Assembly: GCF_055900595.2 (NCBI RefSeq)
Contig: NZ_CM148325.1
Direction: 5' to 3' (one strand)
Length of the DNA stretch: 64,000 bases
Shown: one piece after another, positions 1,919 through 61,590 of the stretch
How the letters are laid out: each line of letters opens with the position of its first letter
Numbering within the stretch: position 1 is the stretch's first letter
Translations under genes and position numbers: made by a program
The notes under the pieces: model-generated
Database searches by the model: none
What the model was told of the DNA's origin: nothing
Seen by the model: the letters and a program-made list of their open reading frames with translations, nothing else

Positions 1919-2515
1919 TTACTGCAACTGCGCAGCAATTAGCGGCCAGCGGGCGTCAAAGTCATCCGTCGGGCGGTATTTAAACTCGCTGCGGACAAAG
2001 CGTGACAGCATACCTTCACAGAAGGCCAGGATCTGGCTTGCCAGCAGGGTTTCGTCGGTGGTGTAACCTTCACCCTCACGCATTCTCTTTTCACGCAATA
2101 CCTGACGCAACTGCGCTTCAATACGCTCGAATAGCTGGTTGATGCGCCCTTGCAGGCGATCCTGTTCAAACATTAGTGCATGACCAGTGAGGATGCGGGT
2201 CAGGCCAGGATTACGCTCACCAAAACCGAGAAGCAGCAACACAATCAGACGCAGGCGCGCTGTGGTGTCTTTCTCATCTTTCAGAATCAGATTGATGCGA
2301 GTAATCAGGCTATCTTCGATAAACTCAATCAGGCTATCGAACATGCGGGTCTTACTGGGGAAGTGGCGATACAGTGCCGCTTCGGAAACGCCGACAGAGG
2401 CGGCCAGTTTTGCCGTCGTGATACGTTGGCTTCCATCGCTGGATTCCAGCATCAGCGCCAGAGACTGAAGTATTTCCTCGCGACGGTTCCTTTTCGCAGT
2501 TTGTTTTTCTGCCAT
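1919..2515 (-). CDS. slmA: nucleoid occlusion factor SlmA (TetR family), 198 aa
   Basis: Track ORF 1919..2557; start placed at [19 protein letters not shown]... (ATG at 2513-2515). Confidence 0.9.
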
Positions 2516-2620
2516 GTTACAAAATACCCCTGAAAATAAGCACTTGCCAGGCGGCACCCACGCTATGACCGCAAACGAAATGTTTGCGGCTATGTTATGA
2601 CGTTATTCGGATGCGTAGTG

Positions 2621-3079
2621 TTACTGACGACCAGAGTGACCAAAGCCGCCTTCACCGCGGTCGGTGGCGTCGAAATCTTCCACCAGATTAAATTCAGCCT
2701 GTACTACCGGAACAAAAATCATCTGGGCGATGCGTTCGCCAGGTTGAATGGTGAAGCTGTCCTGACCACGGTTCCACACGGAAATCATCAACTGGCCCTG
2801 ATAGTCAGAATCGATCAATCCTACCAGGTTACCAAGCACGATACCGTGCTTATGTCCCAATCCGGAGCGCGGCAGCATCATTGCCGCCAGTGAAGGATCG
2901 GCAATATGAATCGCCAGCCCGGTCGGAACCAGCGTAGTGTCACCCGGAGCCAGTTCTACGGCGTCGTCGAGACAGGCACGCAGGTCAAGTCCGGCAGAGC
3001 CAGAGGTGGCATAAGTCGGGAGCGGAAATTCCTTCCCAACGCGCGGGTCCAGAATCTTAACGTCGATTTTTTTCATCAT
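2621..3079 (-). CDS. dut: dUTP diphosphatase
   Basis: [36 protein letters not shown]...; 152-aa ORF. Confidence 0.95.
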
Positions 3080-8468: not shown

Positions 8469-8819
8469 AGTAAATAGCTGACTTATGGATGTGCTGGGGA
8501 TTCTATGTATTTAGCTGTGGCTTTACCATTACTTTTCCCGTTTTTGACTTAAATAGCAATTTACCCACCAATTCTTGCTGAACATCTATACTTTTTTTGT
8601 ATTTTTATGCGATTCATTGATTTCCGCAGTACGTGCAGTAAGGAATCGCGGAGCAACAGTGAAAGAATATTGTTGCTAATGATTTTATTTGATTGATTTC
8701 TTTATTGAAAAACAACGATGTGCTTAAAAATCATTCGGATCGGATTGCCGCGAAAGAAGTGATACACTAGCGCGTCAATATCAGTACGGTATCAGTATTC
8801 AGGTAGCTGTTGAGCCTGG

Positions 8820-8831
8820 GGCGGTAGCGTG
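8820..8831 (+). promoter_or_regulatory. ops element (GGCGGTAGCGTG) in the waaQ leader, expected RfaH recruitment site within a JUMPstart-like region
   Basis: Exact ops 12-mer read about 50 nt upstream of waaQ start. Confidence 0.8.
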
Positions 8832-8880: not shown

Positions 8881-9939
8881 GTGGATAAGCCATTTCGAAG
8901 AATTTTGCTCATTAAGATGCGTTTTCATGGGGATATGTTATTAACTACTCCTGTCATTAGTTCGCTGAAAAAAAATTACCCTGACGCAAAAATCGATGTG
9001 CTGCTTTATCAGGATACCATCCCGATTCTGTCTGAAAATCCAGAGATTAACGCGCTCTACGGCATAAAAAATAAAAAAGCAAAAGCCTCAGAGAAAATTT
9101 CCAACTTTTTTCATCTCATCAAGGTATTACGTGCCAATAAGTATGACCTTATCGTCAATCTTACCGATCAATGGATGGTTGCTATACTGGTTCGCTTATT
9201 AAATGCCCGTGTGAAAATTTCCCAGGATTATCATCATCGGCAGTCTGCTTTTTGGCGTAAAAGCTTCACCCATCTGGTGCCGTTGCAGGGTGGAAATGTG
9301 GTGGAAAGTAACTTATCCGTGCTGACGCCACTGGGTCTCGAATCGTTGGTGAAGCAGACAACGATGAGTTACCCGCCTGCAAGCTGGAAACGAATGCGTC
9401 GCGAACTGGATCACGCAGGTGTTGGACAAAATTATGTGGTTATCCAACCTACCGCGCGGCAAATCTTCAAATGCTGGGACAACGCCAAGTTTTCCGCTGT
9501 GATTGATGCCTTACATACACGTGGCTATGAAGTCGTTCTGACGTCCGGCCCGGATAAAGACGATCTGGCCTGCGTCAATGAAATTGCGCAGGGATGCCAG
9601 ACGCCACCAGTAACGGCGTTGGCCGGAAAGGTAACCTTCCCGGAACTTGGTGCGTTAATCGATCATGCGCAGCTGTTTATTGGCGTTGATTCCGCACCGG
9701 CGCACATTGCCGCTGCAGTTAATACGCCGCTGATATCGCTGTTTGGTGCAACAGACCATATTTTCTGGCGTCCCTGGTCAAATAACATGATTCAATTCTG
9801 GGCGGGAGATTACCGGGAAATGCCAACACGCGATCAGCGTGACCGAAATGAGATGTATCTTTCGGTTATTCCGGCGGCAGATGTCATTGCTGCTGTTGAT
9901 AAATTATTGCCATCCTCCACGACAGGTACGTCGTTATGA
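8881..9939 (+). CDS. waaQ: LPS heptosyltransferase III (GT9)
   Basis: ...MRFHGDMLLTTPVISSLKKNYPDAKIDVLLYQDTIPIL...; start ambiguous (GTG 8881 or ATG 8917). Confidence 0.85.
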   Translation: MDKPFRRILLIKMRFHGDMLLTTPVISSLKKNYPDAKIDVLLYQDTIPILSENPEINALYGIKNKKAKASEKISNFFHLIKVLRANKYDLIVNLTDQWMVAILVRLLNARVKISQDYHHRQSAFWRKSFTHLVPLQGGNVVESNLSVLTPLGLESLVKQTTMSYPPASWKRMRRELDHAGVGQNYVVIQPTARQIFKCWDNAKFSAVIDALHTRGYEVVLTSGPDKDDLACVNEIAQGCQTPPVTALAGKVTFPELGALIDHAQLFIGVDSAPAHIAAAVNTPLISLFGATDHIFWRPWSNNMIQFWAGDYREMPTRDQRDRNEMYLSVIPAADVIAAVDKLLPSSTTGTSL

Positions 9940-33707: not shown

Positions 33708-34480
33708 GCGTTTTTCTCCCTCGAATTCTCATTATGGTCACCAGGCAGGCGGGTAATGCGTGCATGGCGAGCTTGATCTTCATCGAATCGTTTCATGGTG
33801 GTGTGAACAAAGCTAAGGTGCGCCATCATTGCTTTACGCGCCCCGTCAGCATCACCGGCAAAAATGGCGTCAATGACAGCCTGATGTTGTTCGGTCAGTT
33901 GTGAAAAAACCGGGGGCACCAGATACATCCGCTGACGGCTATGCTTCACTGAGGATTGCAAGACATCGAAGAAACCACGCATGGTTTGCAGCAACACAAT
34001 GTTATGTGAGGCTTCGGCAATCGCCAGATGAAAACGAACGTCCGCTTGTGAGGCGAGATCCGGGTCTTCGCTGAGTGTTGCTTCAAAGCAAAGCTGAATT
34101 TTCTCTTTTTCGCCAGGCGTGGCGCGCATTGCTGCATGCCACGCGGTGCTGGCTTCTATGGCGTAGCGGGCTTCCAGAATATCGAAACTGTAATCCGGAT
34201 CATCGGCCATCAGCGTTTTCAATGGCTGGACGATGTTTTGCTCCGACCATGTGTCATGACGCCAGCGAATAAACGTCCCGCCGCCGCGTCGACTGAGCAG
34301 CACACCTTCGCTCACCAGTTTCGCCAGCGCCTCGCGCAGTGAATTTCGCGACACACCGAGTTGCATTGCCAGTTGACGTTCAGCGGGCAATTTCATGCCC
34401 GCCTCCAGGTTTTTTTCATCGATCAGCGCCCGCACACGATCGGCAACCTCGTCTGACAGGCGTCTGGGTAAAACAATCAT
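33704..34480 (-). CDS. lldR: GntR/FadR-family regulator LldR
   Basis: Start at [25 protein letters not shown]; overlaps lldD start and lldP stop. Confidence 0.92.
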
Positions 34481-36135
34481 TAAGGAATCATCCACGTTAA
34501 GACATAGGCCTGAAGCGTGGTGATCACGCCCACCATACAGGTGAAGATCAGGCTGTGTTTGACAGTAAAGCGGAACAAATCAGACTCTTTGCCCACCAGT
34601 CCTACCGCCGCACAGGCGATAGCGATAGATTGCGGAGAGATCATTTTGCCGGTGACACCACCGGTGGTGTTGGCAGCAACCAGCAACAGGTCAGAAACGC
34701 CAATTTGTTGTGCGGCGGTAGCCTGCAAAGCGGCAAACAAAGCATTAGATGACGTATCCGACCCGGTCAGGAATACCCCAAGCCAGCCGAGGAACGGCGA
34801 GAAGAAGGTGAATGCATGACCGGTATGCGCCAGTGCCAGCGCCAGTGTTGATGACAGTCCGGAATAGTTCGAAATAAAGGCGAATGCCAGCACCATACCG
34901 ATGGAGTAGATAGGCAGAGCCAGTTCTTTCAGCGTGCTGCCGAAGGTGCTGATAGCGTCAGATGGTTTCATCTTCAGCCAGACAATTGAGAGCAGGGCAG
35001 CAAAAAGAATGGCGGTACCGGTAGCAGAGAACCAGTCGAACTTAAACACGGCGGCGTAAGCTGTCGCTTCGCTGACCACTGGCGGCATACGGGCAACCAG
35101 TTTATCGAGGTACGGCACCGGAATATTGATCACCCACTCATACAGCGCGCCACCCGATGCGAACAGGGCTTTAAACGGCGGGATACTCCACAGTGTTACG
35201 GTAGCGGTCAGGAACAGGAACGGTGTCCAGGCACGTAATACCTGACCCGCGGTGTAACCGGTGTGGGCCAGCGTCATATCAACCTGTGACGCCCCCAAAT
35301 CACCAAAACGGAATACGCGCACCGGCTGCCAGCGTTTGAGGAACAGCGTCAGGCAGAGCAGTGATACCAGCGAAGAGATAATGTCTGGCAGTTCCGGCCC
35401 AATGAAGTTAGAGCTGAGGTATTGAGCGATGGCAAACGAGCCGCCCGCAACCACGACCGCAGGCCAGGTTTCTTTGATACCGCGCCAGCCGTCCATAATC
35501 GCCATAATCCAGAACAGCACGATAATGGTCATAAACGGTAGCTGACGCCCCACCATCTGGCCAATCTCAAAGCTGTCGATGCCTGTTACCTGCCCGGCGA
35601 CCAGAATCGGAATACCCATCGCACCGAATGCTACTGGCGCGGTGTTAACAATCAGGCACAGCCCGGCGGCGTACAGCGGTTTAAAGCCCAGGCCGACCAG
35701 CAATGCGGCGGTAATTGCTACCGGTGCGCCAAATCCTGCGGCCCCTTCGAGGAACGCGCCGAAACAGAAACCGACGATCAGCATTTGCAGGCGCTGGTCA
35801 GGGGTTATCGAAAGAATAGACGAGCGGATGATGTCAAACTGCCCGGTTTTCACCGAGATCTTATAGACGAACACCGCTGCAATAATGATCCACGCGATGG
35901 GCCACAAACCGTAGAAGAAGCCATAAACCACCGAGGCCAGCGCGTTAGCGACCGGCATTTTATAGAACAGCAAAGCCACGGCAAGGGCGATTGCCACCGT
36001 CCACGAGGCGGCGACGTATCCTTTCAGTTTGAGCTTAATCAGCGCAAAGAAGAAAAACAGAATGGGAAGCGATGCTATCAGGCTGGAAAGCCAGATATTC
36101 CCGGCGGGATCATAGTTTTGTTGCCAGAGATTCAT
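34480..36135 (-). CDS. lldP: L-lactate permease
   Basis: Start at [29 protein letters not shown]; 551 aa. Confidence 0.93.
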
Positions 36136-36376
36136 TGCAGGTCTCCTGCAGTCCACACACGCCGCGTGATGAGTCTGTTGCTCATCTCCGTGTCACACGT
36201 TGTGTAAAAGTGGCACTGCCAATTGTGTTGTGTAGGGATAATGACAATGAATAGTTAACTAAATGTTATGCATTGGCAACATTGATGTGAGTTTTAATTG
36301 GGGAACTGTGAACCAGAGGTCAGATAAGCGAAGAATTGGTAGGGCCAATTTGGAGTGAGGGAGATGTCTGTAAAGA

Positions 36377-36408
36377 AAAGGGCAATTCCCATCAGGGAAT
36401 TGCCCTCA
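36377..36408 (-). terminator. hairpin (gggcaattccc / gggaattgccc) downstream of the adhesin gene
   Basis: Perfect 11-bp inverted repeat, followed on the minus strand by a T-rich tract (cttttcttt). Confidence 0.5.
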
Positions 36409-36435
36409 GATTGTTGATCTGGTGCGCCTTATTTT

Positions 36436-36520
36436 GCCGGATGCGGCGTGAACGCCTTATCCGTCCTACAGGAATGTGCTGAATCATCCCGTAGGTCTGA
36501 TAAGCGCAGCGCATCACGCA
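36436..36520. repeat. REP/BIME element
   Basis: gccggatgcggcgtgaacgccttatccgtcctac and gtaggtctgataagcgcagcgcatcacgc. Confidence 0.7.
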
Positions 36521-36551
36521 ATTTGGCGTTTACCCATTCTTTAATGGATCA

Positions 36552-39500
36552 TTACCACTGAATACCGGCACCGAGTGCGGCGGAGTATTCACCCTGGCTA
36601 TTGGTACTACCTTGTAATTTGTAGACCCAACGACCATTGGCGCTCACCATCGACACACCTAAAGCAACAGCCGATTCGCCGTTGTAAGTACCACCACCAA
36701 TAGAGGCCATGCTGGCTCCCGGCGTGTAAGCCTGCGGCAGACCGGTCATTGCCATTGCGGAAGCGATACCACCGCTCAACTTGCTTTCGGTTTTGGACAG
36801 TTTGTTATCCATCTCAACCATGCGCTGATCGGTGTATTGCTTCGTTTCCTGCACACTTTGCTTCAACTGTGCATAGTTCACTGCGTCGTTGTTGTTCACG
36901 CCCGCAGAAACGTTGCTGATGCGAGTCGTACCGCCATTGCCGCCACCGAGAGTGATGTTGCTGTAGTCGATAGAGCCATCAGCTTTGGTGTCGTAGCGAA
37001 CGCCACCTGCTTCGGAAGACTTCAGTTGCGAAACGTTAACCGCATCGGTGGCATTAACACCGGCAGCAACGTTGGTGATACGGCGCTGGTTGGTAGAAGA
37101 ACCCACAGAGATTGTGTTTTCTTCGTTGGCCACGGAGCCTGTACCCAGAGCGACGCTGTTGTCAGCGGCAGCAATGGATCCAGAACCAATCGCCACACTG
37201 TCTTTACCCTGGGCGTTAGCATCTACGCCATCGGTGTTGGTCTTGAAGTACTTGGTGCTACCTGTGGTTACGATATCGCCAATACCGTTCTCGATATTGG
37301 TCACGCGAGTATCCAGATTCGTCACCTGATTGTTCAGGTTAGTAATGCTCTGGGTATTCTGGGAAACCTGCGCATCCGTTACTTTCAATTGACCCACGTT
37401 GACCGCATCGGTATCAGCCGAACCAGCCGCGACGTTGGTGATCTGACGTTGACCGTCTTCGCTACCTACGGAGAATTCACCCACAGAGTTCTGCGGTGCA
37501 TCCATGTTGTAGGCGGTGTAGCCAGTTTGTGCGCCACGGGTAGTTTGAGAACCATTACCCATTGCAATGCTGTTTGCATGGTTTGCACGCGCGTTGCTAC
37601 CGATAGCAATACCGTTAATCGCATCTGCCAGAACTAAAGTGTTCAGGCCGATACCAATACCTGCATTACCATTAACGATGGTTTTTGCGCCCATTGCCAG
37701 CGAGTCTTCACCGATTGCCAGTGAGTCTTCAGCCGTTGAATTGGCGTGATAGTATTTGGTTGGCGTGGTGGCTACTGCACCAATGGCATTCTGCAACTGG
37801 CGAACCGTAACGGCGTCATGGGCTTCAGAACCATCGGCAACATTGATGATTTGACGATATTTACCATCGTCACCGATCGACAATGCGCCAAGCAGTTCAC
37901 CGTCAGTTGTGTCATAACCAATCACAACACCTTCTTCCGATACGCTGGTGTCACGAGAACCTTTAACTATTAAACGGCTGGAAACGGAACTGCTACCCAG
38001 AGCGATACCTGTATCAACGTTGCTGTAACTGTCCTGACCGATGGCTACACTGCTGGCACGAGAGGCAACAGCGTTATAACCCACAGCGGTAGCACCAATA
38101 CCTGAAGCGCTGGCATCGTTGAATGCTAAGCCGTTGTCGTTGGTACGCACATAGTTAATACCCGCGCCATTTTCTTCGATGTAGGTTTCACTGGTGTTAC
38201 CGGCAAGCTGATTGATGACTTCGCTGTTCTGCTGGATCAGCATATTGGTGTTAAACAGCTGAGAACCGTTCACTGCATCGGTGCTACCTTCACCAATGTT
38301 ACCATCAGCAACGTTTGTGATAATGCTGGCCTTGCCGTCATGACTGGCGTTGTAAGCCCCTTCGCCGTTATTGGCGGTCGCATCCCACAGCAGCGCGTTC
38401 TCATCAAGCGCATCCAGAGCGTCACCGACATTGTTGTACTCGGCATTCGCAATGGTGTAAGTCGGCGCAGTGATAGTACCGTCAGCGTTAACTTCTGCAT
38501 CACCGCCCAGAGCATCTGCGATATATTTATTAGTGGTATAGAGTTGTGAGCCGTTAATCGCGTCGCTGCTGGTGGCAGAGATTGCACCATTTGCGACGTT
38601 AGTAATCTTACTGGCAGTGTTATCTACCCCACGACCGGCGCTGAATGCACCAGCACCGTCATTGGCTGTTGCATCCCAGAGCAGGGCGTCATCCAGTGTG
38701 GTATCGATCGCTTCCAGTGCGTCACCAACGTTGCTGTAACTGCCGCCAGCGATGGCATAAGTCGGTGTGGTGATACTGCCGTCCGCATTCACCACAGCGT
38801 TCCCGCCCAGAGCATCGGCAATGTAGTCACTAACGCCATAAAGTTGAGAACCATTAATAGCGTCGCTACTGGTGGATGAGACTGCACCGTTTGCAACATC
38901 AGTGATTACACTGGGATCATTATTAATGCCGTGTTTGGCGCTGAATTTGCCTGCGGTTGTATCCCAGAGCAGAGCATCACCGAGAGAATCACTAAATGAA
39001 GTGTTAATCGCAGCCAGAGCATCCCCGACGCTAGTGTAGTCAGTGCCGCCAATACTATAGGTTGGCCCGGTTAATATACCTGTATCGCTAATATCAGCCC
39101 CACCACCCAGATAGGACGTGAATGAATCAGCCAAACCGTAAAGTTGTGAGCCATTAATGGCGTCAGTGCTGTCAGAGGAGACTATGCCAGCTTGTACGTT
39201 GCTGATTTTGTTGGCGGCGTTAGTGCCGTGTGCAGCGGTGAATGCGCCTGCGGCGTCGTCCCATTTCAGGGCGTCTTCACCGAGGTTAGTCACCGTATCA
39301 GTCAGGTTAGTGATATTGGTGGTGTTGGTCGCCACATCGTCCTTGGTCGCTTTCAGCTGAGAACCATTAACGGCGTCGGTGCTGGTGTCAGAGAGCTCGC
39401 CAGCGGTGACGTTAGTGATTTTGTTGGTGGCGTTGGTGCCGTGTGCAGCGGTGAATGCGCCTGCGGCATCGTCCCATTTCAGGGCGTCTTCACCGAGGTT

Positions 39501-41363
39501 AGTCACCGTATCAGTCAGGTTAGTGATGTTGGTGGTGTTAGTTGCCACGTTATCGTTAGTGGTTTTCAACTGAGAACCGTTAACGGCGTCGGTGCTGGTG
39601 TCAGAGAGCTCGCCAGCGGTGACGTTAGTGATTTTGTTGGTGGCGTTGGTGCCGTGTGCAGCGGTGAATGCGCCTGCGGCATCGTCCCATTTCAGGGCGT
39701 CTTCACTAAGGTCAGTCACCGTATCAGTCAGGTTAGTGATATTGGTGGTGTTGGTCGCCACATCGTCCTTGGTCGCTTTCAGCTGAGAACCATTAACGGC
39801 GTCGGTGCTGGTGTCAGAGAGCTCGCCAGCGGTGACGTTAGTGATTTTGTTGGTGGCGTTGGTGCCGCGTGCAGCGGTGAATGCGCCTGCGGCATCGTCC
39901 CATTTCAGGGCGTCTTCACCGAGGTTAGTCACCGTATCAGTCAGGTTAGTGATATTAGTGGTGTTGCCAGCCACTTCGCTCGTCAGGTTAGTGATGTTGG
40001 TGGTGTTTGCCGCCACATCGTCCTTGGTCGCTTTCAGCTGAGAACCGTTGACGGCGTCGGTGCTGGTGTCAGAGAGGTCGCCAGCGGTGACATTGGTGAT
40101 TTTGCTAGTGGCGTTGTTGCCATGGGCAGCGCTGTATTTGCCATTGGTTTGGTCCCATTGCAGAGTGTTTTCATCAAGTACAGTGAGCGCATCGCCAACG
40201 TTATTTTTGTTACCATTTTTTAAGTTGTAGGCGGGGGCTTTAACTGTACCGTCGTCAACGTTTACCGATGCGCCTCCACCCAGTCGTTTTGCTACCGAGT
40301 CGCTGATGGCATAAAGCTGCGAGCCATTAATGGCGTCATTGCTGTCAGCTTTGATGGTGCCATTTTTCACATTCACGATCTTGCGTTTTAATGAGTCATT
40401 ACCGACAGAAACGCTATCGTCCAGATCCGCAATCGAACCTGCCCCCAACGCGACGGCGTTAATACCGTTGGCGCTGGTATTACTACCAAGCGCAAGACTA
40501 TTATCGCCCGTGACAACACTGGTTTTACCTAAAGCAATAGAGTTTAAGCCACTCGATTGGCTACCATTACCCAGAACGATAGCATCTGTACCATTAGCTT
40601 TGTTGCCCTGACCTATGGCAATTTCGCTATCTGCCAAAGCCTGGCTGCCATTGCCCAATACGATAGTATTGGTTTTATCGGCAAGGCTCCCGGAGCCCAG
40701 CGCCATGCTATTAGTCCCTTTTGCCTTCGCATTATTGCCAATGGCGGTAGCATTTTCAGCGGCTTCGGTGTTAGTGCCCATCGCGATGGAGTCCGTTCCT
40801 GATGCATTTGCCAATCGTCCTAATGCAAGAGCATTAGCAGCACTTGCTACCGTATCTTTGCCCAACGCCATGGCACCTTCACCTTTAGCTTGAGCAGAAT
40901 TCCCCAGTGCAAGTGTATAATCGCTGGTCGCTTTAGCTGCACTGCCGATGGCGATAGCTCGGCTGCCCGTTGATACCGTTGATTGCCCTAAGCCAACCGA
41001 TCTTTCTCCTGATGAGTTACTTGAGAAGCCAATTGCCGTACTGCCCACCCCGGCGGTCGAACCTATTCCTACCGCAACACTTCCTGTATTCTCTGTTCCT
41101 GAACCCTTTGGCTCTGATGATGCGACAGCACCTTTACCAATGGCAATCCAGTCATTACTGAGTGGCGTTGCCTCTGCGCTTTTACCACCGTCAAGTGAAA
41201 CCGAAGCATTGGCCCCAACGGGTGAGAGTAGCCCACCCGCAACCAGCGCGGAAATTAACAGCTTACTACGCCCGCTCTTTTTTCCACGACTCTTCGCCGT
41301 TTCGCTGGCAACGCTATAGCTGCCCGTCGCTGGATTCCAGATAACTTTAAAAATTTTGTTCAT
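36552..41363 (-). CDS. trimeric autotransporter adhesin (YadA-like; UpaG/EhaG/SadA family), 1603 aa
   Basis: N-terminal extended signal peptide [21 protein letters not shown]...; long repetitive Ser/Thr/Asn/Gly-rich passenger with NGSQL-type head/neck motifs; C-terminal YadA-type anchor ending ...[36 protein letters not shown]. Confidence 0.85.
39166..40060. repeat. tandem array of about 4 copies of a 213-bp (71-aa) unit inside the adhesin gene
   Basis: Plus-strand artefact ORFs start at 39379, 39592 and 39805 (213-nt spacing) with near-identical translations; the adhesin shows repeated [71 protein letters not shown] blocks. Confidence 0.85.
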
Positions 41364-41406
41364 TATTGATGTTCTCTATTCCTTGATATAAGCGCAGAAG
41401 CTGCAT

Positions 41407-42090
41407 TTATTTTTTGTTTTTCCGCTGCTGAGTTTCAGCAGGTTGAACAGTGTCGAACTGGAGATTGGCCATATTGATGGACAATTTCAGATACTTCAGG
41501 TTATTAGGTGAAACGCCTTTTAATGTCAGGTTAATGTCTTGCCATTGACCAGGCATTAATTGCAGGGTGGAGTTCATGGTGGTGTTGAAAAGTAATTGTT
41601 GCCACTTCGACAGCGCTTTGGTATCGGTGGGTCTTTCACTGCCCCATGTGGCTTGAAAGCCAATATTTGATACGGGAACGCTTAATAGGTTGACCAGCGA
41701 AATACGAATAACGCTACCATTTTCAACTGCATCAATAGACAGCACCCGGCCTGCCAAACCAACCGAGCCATTGTTTAAAATGAAGTATTTTGTTTGTGCA
41801 GGGTTAAATTCGGTGAAGACAAATTCGTCCTGTTTGTCTTTGACCGCCTTTACTACACCCGCCAGCACTTTAGTGGTGTTTGCAATATTAATTTGTTGAT
41901 TTTCAATAAATTCTATCTTTCTTTTATATTGTTCTTGTTGTTTTTCAAGAATCTCTATTTTACTTTTTTGCAATTCTTGCTGTTTGGCAAGATCGTCGAT
42001 CAGATTCGCTTTCTCAATATAGTCACACCCAGTCAATACCCAGAGTGGCAATGTTATCAACATGCTTAATAGTGCTTTTTTGATGCTCAT
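41407..42090 (-). CDS. SadB-like inner-membrane lipoprotein encoded immediately upstream of the adhesin
   Basis: Signal peptide with LTGC lipobox and Asp at +2 (CD, inner-membrane retention); coiled-coil-like QQELQKSKIEILEKQQEQYKRKIEFIENQQ; ends 44 nt upstream of the adhesin start on the same strand. Confidence 0.65.
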   Translation of the reverse strand: MSIKKALLSMLITLPLWVLTGCDYIEKANLIDDLAKQQELQKSKIEILEKQQEQYKRKIEFIENQQINIANTTKVLAGVVKAVKDKQDEFVFTEFNPAQTKYFILNNGSVGLAGRVLSIDAVENGSVIRISLVNLLSVPVSNIGFQATWGSERPTDTKALSKWQQLLFNTTMNSTLQLMPGQWQDINLTLKGVSPNNLKYLKLSINMANLQFDTVQPAETQQRKNKK

Positions 42091-42662
42091 AGGGTGAATT
42101 CCTTTTCATGATCCCGATACGTTAACTGTTACGGCGTAATCATCCTTTTTATGAATGATTCGAGTGGAAATATACGTTATATAAATTTATAAGAGACTTT
42201 TTCTATTAATTGTTGTATTAATTGGTAGTGCGAATATGACATTAAATGTCAGACAATTTCAGATTGTAGCCAATAATATTAATCGCGCGGATTTTAATGA
42301 TCGATGTCAATCAATGTCAAATGTTTCACCGGATGAAAACACCGACCAGGAGAAATATTAATATTCAGCATGGTGATGTTTTCTTGGGAAGTGTGTGATT
42401 CTGAGCGATAAATATAAATAATTAATGGCTGTTACAGGCATTAATGTGCATTAATTCATTGTTATCGCTTATATATCACTTTTTTATTCCATACCACAAT
42501 TTCAGAATTTAGCCTGTAATATGCGCTTCAAAGAGCCGGTGAGATGGAAGCAATAGTGATAAGAATGTTAAAGATATCCGATATCTGGTATCAGGCTCCT
42601 GCATGTGCCAGCAGGAGCGAGTAAATCGTGAGAGGCTGTGATTACAGCGGTGAGACAGGTAC

Positions 42663-43025
42663 TTAAAATGCGGTCTTAGAGAATCCGGTCATCTCTTGCA
42701 GGCCCATTTCGCGGCCCAGCGCGGTCATCGGATGCACAACTACCAGTCCGCGAACACTTTTCTTCAGCTTGCCCATATCAGCCTGCTCTTTTTTAGTAAT
42801 CGCGCGCTGGAAGGGCATTTTCATCAGTTTTTGCGCTTCTTTACTGAGTTTCTGGCTGTGAACTTCACGCAGGCGAGCAATTTCGGCTTCCAGCGTGGCT
42901 TTTTCTTTTTCCAGTTCGGCATATTTATCTGCGGCTTCAACCAGTGACAGGTCAGCCTGCTGATGGCGGATAGCGTCCAGGCGATCGCTGAGACGTTTGA
43001 TTTCGTTTTTTTCGACTTCTTTCAT
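42663..43025 (-). CDS. yibL: DUF2810-family protein YibL
   Basis: 120 aa, [42 protein letters not shown]... Confidence 0.85.
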
Positions 43026-43308
43026 GTGATGACTTCTGATAGAGATAAATTTATAGCCTCTAGTATGCGCGACCAGGTGCTTTGTTCACAACAGATGGCA
43101 TTGTAATAGTTCCAGATTGTAACCATTAATGTGTTTGAAAATTACCCAATCTATTGATTAATTAGGAAATTTAAAGAAAAAAGATAGACAACAGAAGAGG
43201 ATCATTATTGAGGATTGAGCACGTTTTCCTTAATGTCATTTATACCGGGATCTAAACTAAAATTGGCGGCCGCGCATTCCCGACGCGGGGTAATACGGAG
43301 ATATCATC

Positions 43309-43518
43309 ATGGGCAAATTAGGTGAAAACGTTCCGCTTCTTATCGATAAAGCTGTAGATTTCATGGCATCGAGCCAGGCGTTCCGGGAGTATCTGAAAAA
43401 ACTTCCTCCCCGCAATGCGATTCCGTCCGGAATACCTGATGAAAGCGTGCCGTTATATCTACAACGTCTGGAGTATTATCGTCGGCTTTATCGGCCGAAA
43501 CAGGTAGAGGAGAAGTAA
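43309..43518 (+). CDS. yibT: small protein YibT (69 aa)
   Basis: [31 protein letters not shown]...; position between yibL and mtlR. Confidence 0.7.
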
Positions 43519-43528
43519 GCGAAAGTAC

Positions 43529-44116
43529 TTACTTTTGAAAGGCTTTTTTTAAGCTGATTTTGGAAATCAGCTCTGTCAGTGAAAGGACCATTGTTGATCG
43601 CACAGCCTGTTGGTAACGCTGAATTTGCATTGCATACAAACTGGAGTCTGCGGGTTCAAACTGTGGCGGCGGTGGTAACGCCGCCACACAGTGCAGCTCA
43701 CCAAAGGGGCCAAGAATTTCGTCGTCGGTAAAGGCGTACTCATTGCCGTCGTGATTTAGTTCTTCACGCAATGCCATCAGCAGTTCCGCATCTTCGTATT
43801 CATGGCGGTTAATGACACCCAACCCGTAAATGAGTTTTAAACGCACAGAAAGATCGCCCAGCGGGCCATCGCCGTCGAGTAACGGTTCTACAGCATACTT
43901 CACCGCGTAATCGTCTTTGCGGAATACCTGAAGCACCAGAAGATTTACCGCCTCGGTCAAAAGCTCGACGGCGGTAATCAGAAAGCTTCGCACGGTTTTG
44001 CCAGCATTCAGACGCTCAAGCACACGGTTTTCAAAGGCCTGGGTTTGTTCCATTGTTGCCTGCATATCTGACAATCTGTTATTCGGGCGCAGGGAGTCCT
44101 GCGCCTGGTCCACCAT
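43529..44116 (-). CDS. mtlR: mannitol operon repressor MtlR
   Basis: 195 aa, [43 protein letters not shown]... Confidence 0.92.
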   Translation of the reverse strand: MVDQAQDSLRPNNRLSDMQATMEQTQAFENRVLERLNAGKTVRSFLITAVELLTEAVNLLVLQVFRKDDYAVKYAVEPLLDGDGPLGDLSVRLKLIYGLGVINRHEYEDAELLMALREELNHDGNEYAFTDDEILGPFGELHCVAALPPPPQFEPADSSLYAMQIQRYQQAVRSTMVLSLTELISKISLKKAFQK

Positions 44117-45264
44117 TATTGCATTGCTTTATAAGCGGTTACCGCCTCGGATACAACCTCGCTGTTAGCATCAAGGCCGGAAATCTGCGCCAGTGCGGCT
44201 TGCGGGCCTTTGTCGGCAATCAGTGCTGCCAGTTCCTGAGCCTGCGGATCATCTTCACTGCGGAAGTGCATTGCAGCGGCAATACCTTCAATCAGGTTTT
44301 TATGTGGCAGACCATATTCCAGCGTTCCGAGCAGTGGCTTGATCAGACGGTCGCCAGCACTCAGTTTACGCAGCGGCTGACGGCCTACGCGCTCTACATC
44401 GTCTTTCAGATACGGGTTCTCAAAACGACCAAGGATTTTCTGGATGTACGCCGCATGTTTGTCCGCGTCAAAACCGTAACGCTTGATCAGTACAGCGCCA
44501 CTTTCTTCCATCGCCCCTTTTACTACCGCGCGGATTTTCTCGTCGAGAATTGCGTCACGAATGGTCTGATGACCTGCCAGTTTTCCGAGGTACGCGGTTA
44601 TAGCATGACCTGTATTCAGGGTGAAGAGTTTACGCTCAACAAATGCCATCAGGTTGTCGGTTAACTCCATGCCTGGGATGTTCGGCAGTGCACCTTTGAA
44701 TTGGGTTTTATCGACAATCCATTCGCTGAAGGTTTCGACTGTCACTTCCAGCGGATCGTTCGTTGCCGAAGCGGAAGGCGGTACGATGCGGTCAACGGCA
44801 GAGTCCACAAAGCCAACATGTTCTTCGACCCACGCTTTGGCGTCTTCCGGCAGGGCGTTCATCACATGGCCTTTCAGCTGCGTGGTGCCGCGTACCATGT
44901 TTTCACAGGCGATAATGTTCAGCGGGGATTCATTACCTTGTTCTTTACGTTTCACCAGCCCTTTGGCGATTGCCGGAGCAATACGTTCCAGCACAACCGG
45001 GCCCACGGCGGTAGTGACTAAATCAACCTGAGCAATCAGATCAACGACATCATCACCAATGCTGCTGACAGCATTGACGCCAGAAACGGTATCTACCTGC
45101 TCGGTTTCACCGACTACATGAACCTGATAGCTATGACGGGCATTCAGGGCATCAAGTACCACCTGATTGACATCGGCAAACGTCAGTTGGATACCTGCGT
45201 CTGCCAGCAGTTTACCGATAAAGCCACGACCGATATTACCTGCGCCAAAATGTAATGCTTTCAT
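44116..45264 (-). CDS. mtlD: mannitol-1-phosphate 5-dehydrogenase
   Basis: Track ORF 44116..45408 runs into the REP array; start placed at [29 protein letters not shown] (ATG at 45262-45264), 382 aa. Confidence 0.93.
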
Positions 45265-45299
45265 AGTATTAACCTTCATCAATGTTTTTACCCGAGAGG

Positions 45300-45762
<463 letters not shown>

Positions 45763-47676
45763 TTACTTACGACCTGCCAGCAGTTCCAGCACTTCATCCA
45801 CGCTGGTGGTGTGCGCCAGACGCTCGATGACGGACTCATCATCCAGTGCGTTGGTCAGGCTGGTGATAACCTGAATGTGCTCGTTGTTACGGGCAGCAAT
45901 ACCAATCACCAGACGGGCAATGTCATCTTCTTCTTCACCGAAGCGCACGCCTTCCGGGTACTGGCAGAACACCACGCCCGTTTTCAGTACGCGATCTTTC
46001 GCTTCAACCGTACCGTGCGGTACCGCGATGGACTCACCCAGATAAGTCGGGGTCAGTTTTTCACGATCCAGCATCGCCTGAACGTATTCCGGCTCAACGT
46101 AACCGCCTTTCACCAGCTGCTCGCCAGCAAAACGAATCGCTTCTTCTTTGGTGGCCGCTTTGCGACCGAGGAAGATGTTCTCCGCGCCTAGCTTGAACAG
46201 GTTAGCACTGGAATCGTCAAAGCTGTCTTTCAGACTGTCTTTCACTTTTACTTCGTTTTCAGTATGGCGCTGGGCAGCAACCAGACGTTCGGTCAGGCTG
46301 GTGTACAGGCCGCTGTCGAGGAAGTTGGTCAGCGAAATATGCTGTGCCTGCGGAACCTGGCGCATAGCGCGTTCGGTCAGGTCACGGTGAGTGATGACCA
46401 GGTCCACATCTGGCGGCAGGTTGTTGATCGCGCTGTTAGTAACAGAAATCTGCGACAGACCTGCATCCTGAATTTTCTTACGCAGCACACCTGCGCCCAT
46501 CGCACTGGAACCCATACCGGCATCACAGGCAACGATGATTTTACGGACGTGGCTCAGGTCGTTAGTCACATCGCCAGCAGACAGCGGAGATGCGCCTTTA
46601 GATTCAGCTTTCATGTCCTGCATACGACGCGTTGCTGCTTCAATGTCATCTTCTTCTTTCACTTTGCTGGTTTTCAGCAGAATGGCAGAGACAACGAAGG
46701 AGACTGCCATCGCCGCACACACACCCGCTATGTTAGCGAAGTAAGCACCTTTTGGTGTCATCGCCAGTACCGCAAGGATAGAGCCCGGAGATGCCGGAGA
46801 AACCAGACCACCGCCCAGGATAGTCAGCGTGAATACGCCAGTCATACCACCGAGGATAACGGCCAGGATCAGACGCGGATTCATCAGCACATACGGGAAG
46901 TAGATTTCGTGGATACCCCCCAGGAAGTGAATGATTGCCGCACCGCCCGCAGACTGTTTAGCGCTACCACGACCAAAGAACATGTACGCCAGCAGAACAC
47001 CCATACCCGGACCTGGGTTAGCTTCAATCAGGAAGAAGATGGATTTACCCAGTTCATGGGACTGCTGAATACCCAGCGGCGAGAAGATACCGTGGTTAAT
47101 GGCGTTGTTGAGGAACAGGATTTTCGCCGGTTCAACAAAGATAGACGCCAGCGGCAGCATGTCATGGACAACCATGAAGTTAACGCCCGCAGCCAGCATT
47201 TTGGACAGGGCTTCAACAATCGGGCCAATGCCGAGGAACGCCAGAATAGCGAGGATCATCCCGATGATGCCTGCGGAGAAGTTATTCACCAGCATCTCAA
47301 AACCGGATTTGATCTTACCGTCTACCCAGCGGTCGAAGTGCTTAATGCACCAGCCGCCCAGCGGACCTGCAATCATAGAACCGAGGAACATCGGCATATC
47401 TGCGCCGACGATAACGCCCATTGTAGTGATGGCACCGACTACGCCGCCACGTTCGCCGCCTACCAGCTTACCACCGGTATAACCGATCAGCAGTGGCAGG
47501 AGATAAGTGATCATCGGCCCGACCAGCTTCGCCAGCGTTTCGTTCGGTAACCACCCTGTTGGAATAAATAGCGCGGTGATGATACCCCACGCGATAAACG
47601 CGCCGATATTTGGCATCACCATGTTGCTGAGGAAACGACCAAAGCTTTGCACTTTGATCTTAATATCGGATGACAT
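45763..47676 (-). CDS. mtlA: PTS mannitol-specific EIICBA
   Basis: 637 aa, MSSDIKIKVQSFGRFLSNMVMPNIGAFIAWGIITALFIPTGW... Confidence 0.95.
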   Translation of the reverse strand: MSSDIKIKVQSFGRFLSNMVMPNIGAFIAWGIITALFIPTGWLPNETLAKLVGPMITYLLPLLIGYTGGKLVGGERGGVVGAITTMGVIVGADMPMFLGSMIAGPLGGWCIKHFDRWVDGKIKSGFEMLVNNFSAGIIGMILAILAFLGIGPIVEALSKMLAAGVNFMVVHDMLPLASIFVEPAKILFLNNAINHGIFSPLGIQQSHELGKSIFFLIEANPGPGMGVLLAYMFFGRGSAKQSAGGAAIIHFLGGIHEIYFPYVLMNPRLILAVILGGMTGVFTLTILGGGLVSPASPGSILAVLAMTPKGAYFANIAGVCAAMAVSFVVSAILLKTSKVKEEDDIEAATRRMQDMKAESKGASPLSAGDVTNDLSHVRKIIVACDAGMGSSAMGAGVLRKKIQDAGLSQISVTNSAINNLPPDVDLVITHRDLTERAMRQVPQAQHISLTNFLDSGLYTSLTERLVAAQRHTENEVKVKDSLKDSFDDSSANLFKLGAENIFLGRKAATKEEAIRFAGEQLVKGGYVEPEYVQAMLDREKLTPTYLGESIAVPHGTVEAKDRVLKTGVVFCQYPEGVRFGEEEDDIARLVIGIAARNNEHIQVITSLTNALDDESVIERLAHTTSVDEVLELLAGRK

Positions 47677-57048: not shown

Positions 57049-57234
57049 GTGAAAAGTGCAGACGTGATCGCCATCCTGAAGCAGCATGGCTGGGAACATA
57101 TTCGAACCCGTGGTAGTCATCATCAGTTCCGCCACCCTGTCCATCCGGGTCTGGTGACGGTTCCGCACCCTAAAAAAGATATTAAGCCCGGTACGCTGGC
57201 GCAAATTGGGCGTCAGGCTGGTTTAACATTTTAA
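57049..57234 (+). CDS. hicA: HicA-family toxin (61 aa), GTG start
   Basis: MKSADVIAILKQHGWEHIRTRGSHHQFRHPVHPGLVTVPHPKKDIKPGTLAQIGRQAGL: HicA-like GSHH...GL(V)TVP(H)PKKD signature; TATAAT at 57025-57030 upstream. Confidence 0.8.
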   Translation: MKSADVIAILKQHGWEHIRTRGSHHQFRHPVHPGLVTVPHPKKDIKPGTLAQIGRQAGLTF

Positions 57235-57250
57235 AATTTCAGGAGGCAAT

Positions 57251-57661
57251 ATGTTTTATCCCGCCTATATCCACAGTGATCCTGACGGCAGCGCCAGCGG
57301 TTTTTTCCCTGATGTTCCAGGCTGTTATTTTGCTGGTGATACGCTGGACAACGCTTTCCAGGATGCGCGAAGTGCACTGGTCGCGCACTTCGAAACCTTA
57401 TGCGAGATGAATGAAGAGTTGCCGCTTCCAGGCTCTGTGGAAACACATCTGGTCCAGCGTGCGCAGGACTTTATTGGCGGGCAATGGTTGCTGGTGGATA
57501 TCAATATGAATCAGTTCGAAGGTCGGGCTGAACGTATCAATATTACGATGCCGAAAAGATTACTGAACAAGATTGATACCTACGTGCGCAATAACCCAGA
57601 CTACGCCAACAGAAGTGCGTTTCTGGCGGAAGCTGCCCGGCGTGTATTGCCGGGCGTTTAA
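57251..57661 (+). CDS. hicB: HicB-family antitoxin (136 aa) with C-terminal ribbon-helix-helix
   Basis: Starts 17 nt after hicA; C-terminal INITMPKRLLNKIDTYVRNNPDYANRSAFLAEAARRVL is RHH/CopG-like. Confidence 0.75.
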   Translation: MFYPAYIHSDPDGSASGFFPDVPGCYFAGDTLDNAFQDARSALVAHFETLCEMNEELPLPGSVETHLVQRAQDFIGGQWLLVDINMNQFEGRAERINITMPKRLLNKIDTYVRNNPDYANRSAFLAEAARRVLPGV

Positions 57662-61504: not shown

Positions 61505-61590
61505 CAGGCTTGATAAGACGCGTTAAGCGTCGCATCAGGCAATGTGCACCCTACGTTGGATGCGGCGCGAGCGCCTTATCCAACCTACGG
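61505..61590. repeat. REP/BIME element overlapping the stop codon of the downstream GH127 gene
   Basis: aggcttgataagacgcgttaagcgtcgcatcaggca and ggatgcggcgcgagcgccttatccaacctacgg. Confidence 0.65.

Follow-up and report, generated by a model that had tools for sequence, protein, structure and literature searches.

The closest described relative of the locus analysed here is the sadBA operon, which Grin et al. (2014) found to occupy this same site, with mtl on one side and lld on the other, in Escherichia, Salmonella and Shigella (PMC3953254). In Salmonella enterica the operon encodes the lipoprotein SadB (PDB 4C47) and the trimeric autotransporter SadA (STM3691), a protein of 1461 aa (PMC11054257), with a spacer of 44 bp between the two genes (PMC3953254). 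Retention of Salmonella SadB in the inner membrane through Asp at position +2 was confirmed experimentally by Grin et al. (PMC3953254), and the lipoprotein improves the amount and integrity of SadA at the surface, an effect of approximately three-fold, in Salmonella itself as well as in E. coli that expresses the Salmonella sadBA genes (PMC3953254, PMC11054257). In E. coli the family is represented by EhaG of O157:H7 and by UpaG of the uropathogenic strain CFT073, which the literature assigns to the same locus and family (PMC7247748); the CFT073 sequence itself was left out of the comparisons below. PMC7247748 and PMC5854682 attribute aggregation, biofilm formation and extracellular-matrix binding to UpaG and EhaG, alleles other than the one described here. 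Two further proteins are relevant. YajI (PDB 2JWY) is an enterobacterial paralogue of SadB with which it has a beta-sandwich fold in common, although it is encoded at another locus without a linked autotransporter (PMC3953254). TpgA of Acinetobacter, the partner of AtaA, is the other helper described for trimeric autotransporters. It, too, is small and enhances the presentation of such an adhesin on the cell surface (2026 survey), but it is BamE-like/OmpA-like, binds peptidoglycan and is unrelated to SadB, making it a functional analogue only.

The window, a stretch of 64,000 nucleotides, contains a pair of co-oriented genes in this position, flanked by yibL/mtlRDA on one side and by lldPRD on the other, as follows.

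34480-36156, minus strand: lldP, the neighbour on the adhesin side
36495-42658, no strand assigned: strain-variable segment of 6164 bp, missing in E. coli K-12 (K-12 MG1655 annotation and BLAST comparison of the window with the K-12 region)
36552-41363, minus strand: trimeric autotransporter adhesin gene (1603 aa), positional orthologue of upaG/ehaG/sadA (ORF, Pfam domains, SadA crystal fragments, identity to EhaG)
41364-41406, minus strand: 43-nt spacer separating sadB from the adhesin gene, the operon junction, in which a pattern scan found no minus-strand terminator-like site
41407-42090, minus strand: sadB orthologue encoding a predicted inner-membrane lipoprotein of 227 aa (match to PDB 4C47, Foldseek, RefSeq label at the same position)
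42663-43025, minus strand: yibL, the neighbour on the sadB side

Both open reading frames lie where the original prediction had placed them, on the minus strand and with the lipoprotein gene immediately upstream of the adhesin gene, and the neighbouring genes bear out its location of the locus between lldP and yibL. The gene order is identical to that of Salmonella sadBA, which also lies between the mtl and lld operons, and is found again in O157 (lipoprotein-ehaG), in B2 and in further strains. The description of the locus as strain-variable is likewise upheld. In K-12 MG1655 both genes are gone together, and annotation and BLAST show that exactly the ~6.2-kb segment is missing, while a sadB homologue is present in 76% of complete E. 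coli genomes and undetectable in 1277 of 5426.

Five parts can be distinguished in the adhesin gene.

41205-41363, minus strand: extended signal peptide region, aa 1-53, with predicted cleavage after ANA53 (PF13018)
40392-41051, minus strand: N-terminal repeats of the YadA-like head type (aa 105-324), the part most variable between strains (YadA_head matches)
39196-39966, minus strand: stalk unit of 213 bp (71 aa), present in 3.6 tandem copies (TRF, motif map)
36777-37808, minus strand: conserved membrane-proximal stalk, aa 1186-1529 (alignments to SadA fragments 2YO0 and 2YO3)
36555-36737, minus strand: YadA-type beta-barrel membrane anchor, aa 1543-1603 (PF03895; Hia anchor structures)

Residues 1-47 match the ESPR family (PF13018, E=4e-15) and are followed by a passenger with more than 25 Pfam matches to YadA_head and YadA_stalk and, in the motif map, 12 neck motifs of the form DA[VI]NxxQL. 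The C-terminal residues 1543-1603 give a strong match to YadA_anchor (PF03895, E=1.5e-19) and also match the Hia anchor structures 3EMO and 2GR7, so the proposed architecture of extended signal peptide, repetitive passenger and YadA-type C-terminal anchor is present in full. The 71-aa stalk unit consists of a DALL-like motif, the neck DAVNGSQL and a coiled coil, and its copy number varies between strains, as the gaps in alignments to the closest alleles fall within 39196-39966. An antisense ORF of 343 aa inside this array (39192-40223, plus strand) was regarded as a side effect of the repeats. Two SadA crystal fragments align to the protein, 2YO0 with 89% identity across 266 residues (E=2.3e-139) and 2YO3 with 78% identity across 204 residues (E=9.5e-91). 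In contrast with SadA, the adhesin has a different head and carries, in addition, the 71-aa repeat array. EhaG of O157, a positional orthologue in the order DUF3251 lipoprotein, ehaG, lldP and with the same flanking genes, yibL and lldP, displays 78% identity over aligned residues, 63% in residues 54-400 and 100% in the last 100 aa; the sadB-yibL intergenic regions of O157 and the window gave no alignment by blastn. At the same position an O4:H5 strain (locus L007) encodes an adhesin of 1732 aa, 83% identical to that of the window over aligned residues but differing in head and repeat number. By sequence, the protein is thus assigned to the type Vc trimeric autotransporters of the UpaG/EhaG/SadA orthologous group, the membership originally predicted, on the basis of its identity to O157 EhaG in the same slot and to 2YO0.

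The product of the upstream gene can be divided into three regions.

42025-42090, minus strand: lipoprotein signal peptide with lipobox LTGC and Cys22; Asp23 (+2) is the next codon (sequence)
41821-42024, minus strand: SadB coiled-coil stalk, aa 23-90 (model helix, heptad register, 42-bp repeat)
41446-41820, minus strand: SadB C-terminal beta-sandwich domain, aa 91-215 (4C47 alignment, YajI 2JWY match)

The N-terminus reads MSIKKALLSMLITLPLWVLTGC followed by D, giving the lipobox LTGC, Cys22 and Asp23, and Gly21, Cys22 and Asp23 are invariant in an alignment of 26 homologues. Asp at +2 is the residue of the known Lol-avoidance rule. An AlphaFold2 monomer model (mean pLDDT 75) displays one long helix, residues 22-90, and then strands; heptad a positions alternate between Ile and Gln, d positions are Leu or Ile, and TRF detected a 42-bp (two-heptad) repeat at 41893-41992 within the coding region for the coiled coil. 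Lipobox, Asp +2 and coiled coil therefore all stand as first described. A phmmer search against PDB returned Salmonella SadB, 4C47, at E=5.5e-71, with 108 of 205 residues identical (52.7%) in an ungapped alignment of residues 23-227 to chain residues 3-207 that covers the full mature length. Identity is 43% in the coiled coil and 58% in the C-terminal domain, where most invariant columns of the homologue alignment fall, and the two proteins have a common numbering (Cys22, Asp23, C-terminal domain from ~90). FTEFNP, WQQLLF, PGQWQD and SPNNLKYLKL make up the invariant patches at the protein surface. The 4C47 chains are also the top Foldseek match of the model (E=3e-20), which in addition finds YajI 2JWY (E=1e-3, 15% identity); of the two, SadB is by far the nearer. 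The family assignment rests on this direct match to a solved structure. The Pfam model DUF3251 (PF11622) was below significance (E=0.27), no NCBIfam model gave a relevant match, and insignificant NCBIfam and Pfam profile matches (SA0632 lipoprotein, PhaP, DUF3251) were set aside. RefSeq names proteins at the same locus ‘DUF3251 domain-containing' or ‘SadB/YajI family lipoprotein'. The suggested likeness to SadB is thus that of a clear full-length homologue, and the protein is assigned as a SadB orthologue, predicted to be an inner-membrane lipoprotein. Identity to its O157 counterpart upstream of ehaG is 64% overall and 49% within the coiled coil.

Sequences of possible regulatory character flank the pair on both sides.

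42091-42662, minus strand: AT-rich upstream region (~33-34% GC), probable promoter and H-NS target (composition, pattern scan)
36378-36407, minus strand: terminator-like hairpin beyond the 3' end of the adhesin gene, a 13-bp stem with a T run after it (pattern scan)

A single strong sigma-70-like site (TTGACA-18-TAAAAT, 42320-42291, minus strand) lies upstream of sadB. It is considered a candidate only, because promoter-like sites in the region (6, against 8.2 expected from shuffling) show no excess over chance. PMC5012682 reports repression of UpaG by H-NS, and a role of 42091-42662 as promoter region and H-NS target is probable. Nothing marks any of the small ORFs of 21-41 aa in this region as a gene. 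Beyond the adhesin gene there is a REP-like element at 36426-36466; the Rfam scan of the locus gave sub-threshold matches only, including naRNA4/REP at this element and an STnc380-like match at 36309-36415 (plus strand; 34 bits, the gathering score being 60).

Taken as a whole, the locus is almost certainly an intact two-gene sadBA-type operon of E. coli, comprising an adhesin and its SadB helper. Its expression and common transcript are predictions from the DNA; transcription would begin in the AT-rich region 5' of sadB and stop at the hairpin at 36407-36378. The SadB orthologue would be made first, exported, lipidated on Cys22 and held in the inner membrane by Asp +2. By homology with 4C47 it may form a homotrimer, in which a coiled coil of approximately nine heptads carries three periplasmic beta-sandwich domains. 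The extended signal peptide would take the adhesin across the inner membrane via Sec; a 12-stranded YadA-type barrel would then be formed by three chains and placed in the outer membrane by the Bam complex, and the passenger would be threaded outwards, folding into a head-stalk fibre. By analogy with Salmonella, SadB may raise the amount and integrity of the adhesin displayed at the surface, possibly by preventing the three nascent chains from separating or slipping out of register, the mechanism proposed in PMC3953254. The functional evidence for SadB comes from the Salmonella proteins only, to which the E. coli orthologue is 53% identical. As assembly of a UpaG construct has been seen in a K-12 host and MG1655 lacks sadB, SadB would be an enhancer of display, not a requirement for it. 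The fibre itself may mediate autoaggregation, biofilm formation and binding of extracellular-matrix proteins, by analogy with UpaG and EhaG.

Variation within the species was assessed from adhesin and SadB alleles of eight E. coli loci. The sadB allele of the window is rare (28 of 5426 complete genomes), and its adhesin allele occurs in none of the 5426, the closest being 91-92% identical. Identity among the eight loci is 39-84% in adhesin residues 54-400; over the last 420 aa the alleles compared agree at 93-100%, and the last 100 aa are the same in all eight. SadB alleles share 63-99% identity, falling to 47-49% in the coiled coil, with dS of 0.5-2.5 and dN/dS of ~0.1; they are old and under purifying selection despite deep divergence. 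Synonymous divergence is highest at sadB and at the adhesin gene's 5' end. Co-variation of SadB with the adhesin head was rejected, as the two identities are uncorrelated across the eight loci (Spearman -0.12 and 0.01). At loci L004 and L007 SadB is 99-100% identical and the heads only 39%, the window and locus L001 combine 98.7% identity in SadB with ~75% in the heads, and the SadB of locus L003 is itself a mosaic.

It is conceivable, though very doubtful, that the divergence of sadB mirrors allele-specific matching to an adhesin region outside the head, for instance the ESPR or the stalk repeats. The idea draws on SadB identities as low as 63%, a dS exceeding 1 and mosaicism within the gene, as opposed to an invariant anchor; if it were true, population data could map the interface between SadB and its client. 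Slightly less probable still is that the lipoprotein is a mere conserved neighbour with a periplasmic role of its own, like YajI, and has no action on the adhesin of E. coli. Assembly of UpaG in a host without sadB, the independence of SadB alleles from the adhesin head at L004 and L007, and a SadB mechanism that is so far just proposed all speak for such a role. Against it, sadB and the adhesin gene invariably lie next to each other in the same orientation, ~43-44 nt apart, and were lost together in K-12; two independent studies measured improved display of SadA in the presence of SadB (PMC3953254, PMC11054257), and SadB homologues adjoin trimeric autotransporter genes, in Enterobacterales only (2026 survey). 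Scarcely credible is the matching of each SadB allele to its cognate adhesin allele through chaperone-client co-evolution, which would explain intraspecies SadB differences of up to 36% and the peak of synonymous divergence noted above, but is contradicted by the lack of correlation, the near-identical SadB proteins paired with dissimilar heads, the mosaic SadB of L003 and the invariance of the anchor, the obvious candidate client site, physical linkage to a diversifying head being the simpler account of the pattern.

The operon is therefore real, intact and ordinary, and both the observation of an adhesin with SadB and its interpretation are already in the literature (PMC3953254). To these the present data make small additions: a rare sadB allele, the age of the sadB alleles, the invariant end of the adhesin and the independence of SadB alleles from the head. 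Their value is practical only, raising no new biological question, and lies in annotating the locus correctly: an intact adhesin gene of the UpaG/EhaG type, accompanied by the gene for its SadB helper. As UpaG and EhaG are discussed as vaccine antigens, the extent of variation in the head and repeats is relevant.

Both open reading frames that the original prediction placed between lldP and yibL are present, followed by a hairpin:

41407-42090, minus strand: sadB, encoding the SadB-like lipoprotein (227 aa)
36552-41363, minus strand: gene for the trimeric autotransporter adhesin (1603 aa)
36407-36378, minus strand: terminator-like hairpin with a 13-bp stem and a T run, downstream of the adhesin gene

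The genes are separated by 43 nt (41364-41406), no minus-strand terminator-like site was found between them, and the hairpin is the sole one on that strand at the locus. The GC content of the 572 bp upstream of sadB is 33-34%, and one near-consensus sigma-70-like site (42320-42291; pattern match only) lies within this stretch. Next to the adhesin gene lie lldP/lldR/lldD, and next to sadB lie yibL/yibT/mtlR/mtlD/mtlA, which is the position between mtl and lld reported for the sadBA operon in Escherichia, Salmonella and Shigella (PMC3953254). A sub-threshold REP/naRNA4-like element (36426-36466, minus) adjoins the hairpin 3' of the adhesin gene; in strain RMDEC465, which carries the closest sadB allele, its position is occupied by an IS621 (IS110 family) insertion, with the transposase gene between lldP and the adhesin gene (2053-3033 of that locus). 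Next to this element, the lldP-adhesin intergenic region gives a full-length but sub-threshold hit to the Salmonella sRNA family STnc380, lying antisense to the terminator of the adhesin gene (36309-36415, plus; 34 bits versus a gathering score of 60). A match to naRNA4 (REP325-type nucleoid-associated RNA) scoring above the gathering score lies at 61507-61585 (minus; 67.8 bits).

The lipoprotein begins MSIKKALLSMLITLPLWVLTGC followed by D, giving the LTGC lipobox with Cys22 and Asp at +2, as predicted. Its homology to Salmonella SadB is clear. A phmmer search of all PDB chains retrieved 4C47, the SadB structure (E=5.5e-71), with residues 23-227 aligning without gaps to chain residues 3-207; 108 of 205 positions are identical, the coiled coil (43%) being less conserved than the C-terminal domain (58%). 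SadB was named, and its structure solved, by Grin et al. 2014 (PMC3953254), who described a homotrimer comprising a nine-heptad coiled coil and three β-sandwich domains. In the AlphaFold2 model of the lipoprotein (26 homologues, mean pLDDT 75) a single predicted helix, residues 22-90, matches the coiled coil anticipated from sequence and precedes a strand-rich domain; the heptad a positions alternate I/Q and the d positions are L/I. Foldseek ranks the three 4C47 chains first in the PDB (E=3e-20) and also retrieves the paralogue YajI (2JWY). Across the alignment of homologues the coiled coil is the variable part. Invariant positions take in G21-C22-D23 and the greater part of the C-terminal domain, with the motifs FTEFNP, YFILNNGS, ATWG, WQQLLF, PGQWQD and SPNNLKYLKL among them. 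Searches with Pfam DUF3251 and NCBIfam gave no significant match; even so, proteins at this locus carry the RefSeq name 'DUF3251 domain-containing protein' or else 'SadB/YajI family lipoprotein'.

The architecture proposed for the adhesin is borne out by Pfam, which places an extended signal peptide region (PF13018, E=4e-15) at residues 1-47, many YadA_head and YadA_stalk repeats, and a YadA_anchor (E=1.5e-19) at residues 1543-1603. Within the gene, 3.6 copies of a 213-bp (71-aa) unit occupy 39196-39966, each with a DALKWD motif, a neck (ITNVTAG...DAVNGSQL) and a short stretch of coiled coil; the adhesin has 12 neck motifs overall. Membership of the UpaG/EhaG/SadA family is supported by the top PDB matches, the Salmonella SadA crystal fragments 2YO0 (E=2.3e-139, residues 1186-1451; 89% identity across 266 residues of the printed alignment) and 2YO3 (E=9.5e-91; 78% across 204); other trimeric autotransporters follow, the Hia anchor among them. 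The same slot in O157:H7 contains a DUF3251 lipoprotein gene and then annotated ehaG, whose product is 78% identical to the window adhesin. As the protein scores far below the NCBIfam cut-offs for Ata, EmaA, BimA and YadA, it is a trimeric autotransporter adhesin that is none of those four. UpaG, EhaG and SadA are positional orthologues with roles in aggregation, biofilm formation and matrix binding, according to PMC7247748 and PMC5854682; UpaG appears among the H-NS-repressed genes listed in PMC5012682.

The locus varies among strains, as originally described. In K-12 MG1655 yibL and lldP are annotated as direct neighbours, and alignment shows that window 36495-42658 (6164 bp) is missing; joint loss of both sadBA genes in K-12 has been reported (PMC3953254). 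Of 5426 complete E. coli genomes, 4149 carry a sadB homologue, in every case on the chromosome. DNA identity is 60-80% in 2745, 80-90% in 1373 and at least 95% in just 28, and the window's sadB allele is therefore rare. Homologues were also found in E. marmotae, E. fergusonii, E. albertii, E. ruysiae, Shigella, Salmonella and Pseudocitrobacter; a 2026 survey confined them to Enterobacterales. The O157 homologue (8971-9639 of its locus) is annotated as 222 aa, starting five codons later than the near-identical AR_0128 gene (8896-9579; 227 aa, beginning MNLKKIFFSAV...), a difference that probably reflects start-codon annotation rather than biology.

Across eight loci, SadB identity ranges from 63% to 99%. 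Apart from the two closest alleles, sadB dS is 0.5-2.5 with dN/dS of ~0.1; the gene is under purifying selection, and its alleles are old but constrained. Synonymous divergence peaks at the locus and drops with distance from it: 0.5 in yibL, whose protein sequence is unchanged, 0.15-0.2 in lldP and 0.1 in mtlA. The window is E. coli DNA; over lldPRD several complete genomes of the species match it at 100% identity, and most at only 90-95%. The pattern across ~34480-47676 resembles that of old haplotypes, either maintained or imported, surrounding a surface antigen that is diversifying. In the adhesin, all eight loci agree completely over the last 100 aa and are 93-100% identical over the last 420 aa, with residues 54-400, which span the head, at 39-84%. 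The nearest alleles found (91-92% identity) differ in the head, and gaps in the repeat array indicate that repeat copy number also differs. Across these loci the head is not tracked by SadB alleles: two loci (L004 and L007) with 99-100% identical SadB have heads that are 39% identical, and SadB of another, L003, is a mosaic. Strain Z0117EC0005 aligns colinearly with the window, at 99.97% identity over 1-32890, 99.8% up to 38083 and 98.4-98.9% from 41210 on; the interval 38083-41210, inside the adhesin gene, is mosaic relative to L002, L008 and L009, which suggests a recombination breakpoint within the gene.

Other features of the window include a 323-aa reverse transcriptase (904-1875, plus) between pyrE (149-619) and slmA (1919-2557, minus) that matches the retron Ec107-like RT model (PADLOC PDLC03739, E=7e-133), and a JUMPstart RNA element (8793-8831, plus; 55 bits, above the Rfam gathering score) in the waa LPS-core region. 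A 135-bp unit repeated 3.1 times (96% matches; 45332-45752) between mtlA and mtlD carries REP-like palindromes and yields spurious repeated ORFs on both strands. ORFs of 61 and 136 aa between aldB and yiaW (57049-57661, plus) occupy the slot annotated as a hicA/hicB type II toxin-antitoxin pair in Z0117EC0005.

The original observation is confirmed and its interpretation supported, on evidence of homology, architecture, synteny and purifying selection; the mechanism is that of sadBA. The adhesin, a type Vc protein bearing an ESPR, would be exported via Sec and assembled by the Bam complex, assisted by a trimeric inner-membrane lipoprotein whose proposed role is to keep the three nascent chains together. 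In Salmonella, SadB is located in the inner membrane and boosts both surface display and protease resistance of SadA (PMC3953254), and its effect on display was reproduced, at about three-fold, in 2024 (PMC11054257); this Salmonella work is the basis on which expression, trimer formation, localisation and a helper effect are inferred for E. coli. As a K-12 host supports assembly of a UpaG construct, and K-12 MG1655 lacks sadB, SadB is an enhancer and not a requirement in what is an already known locus, sadBA.
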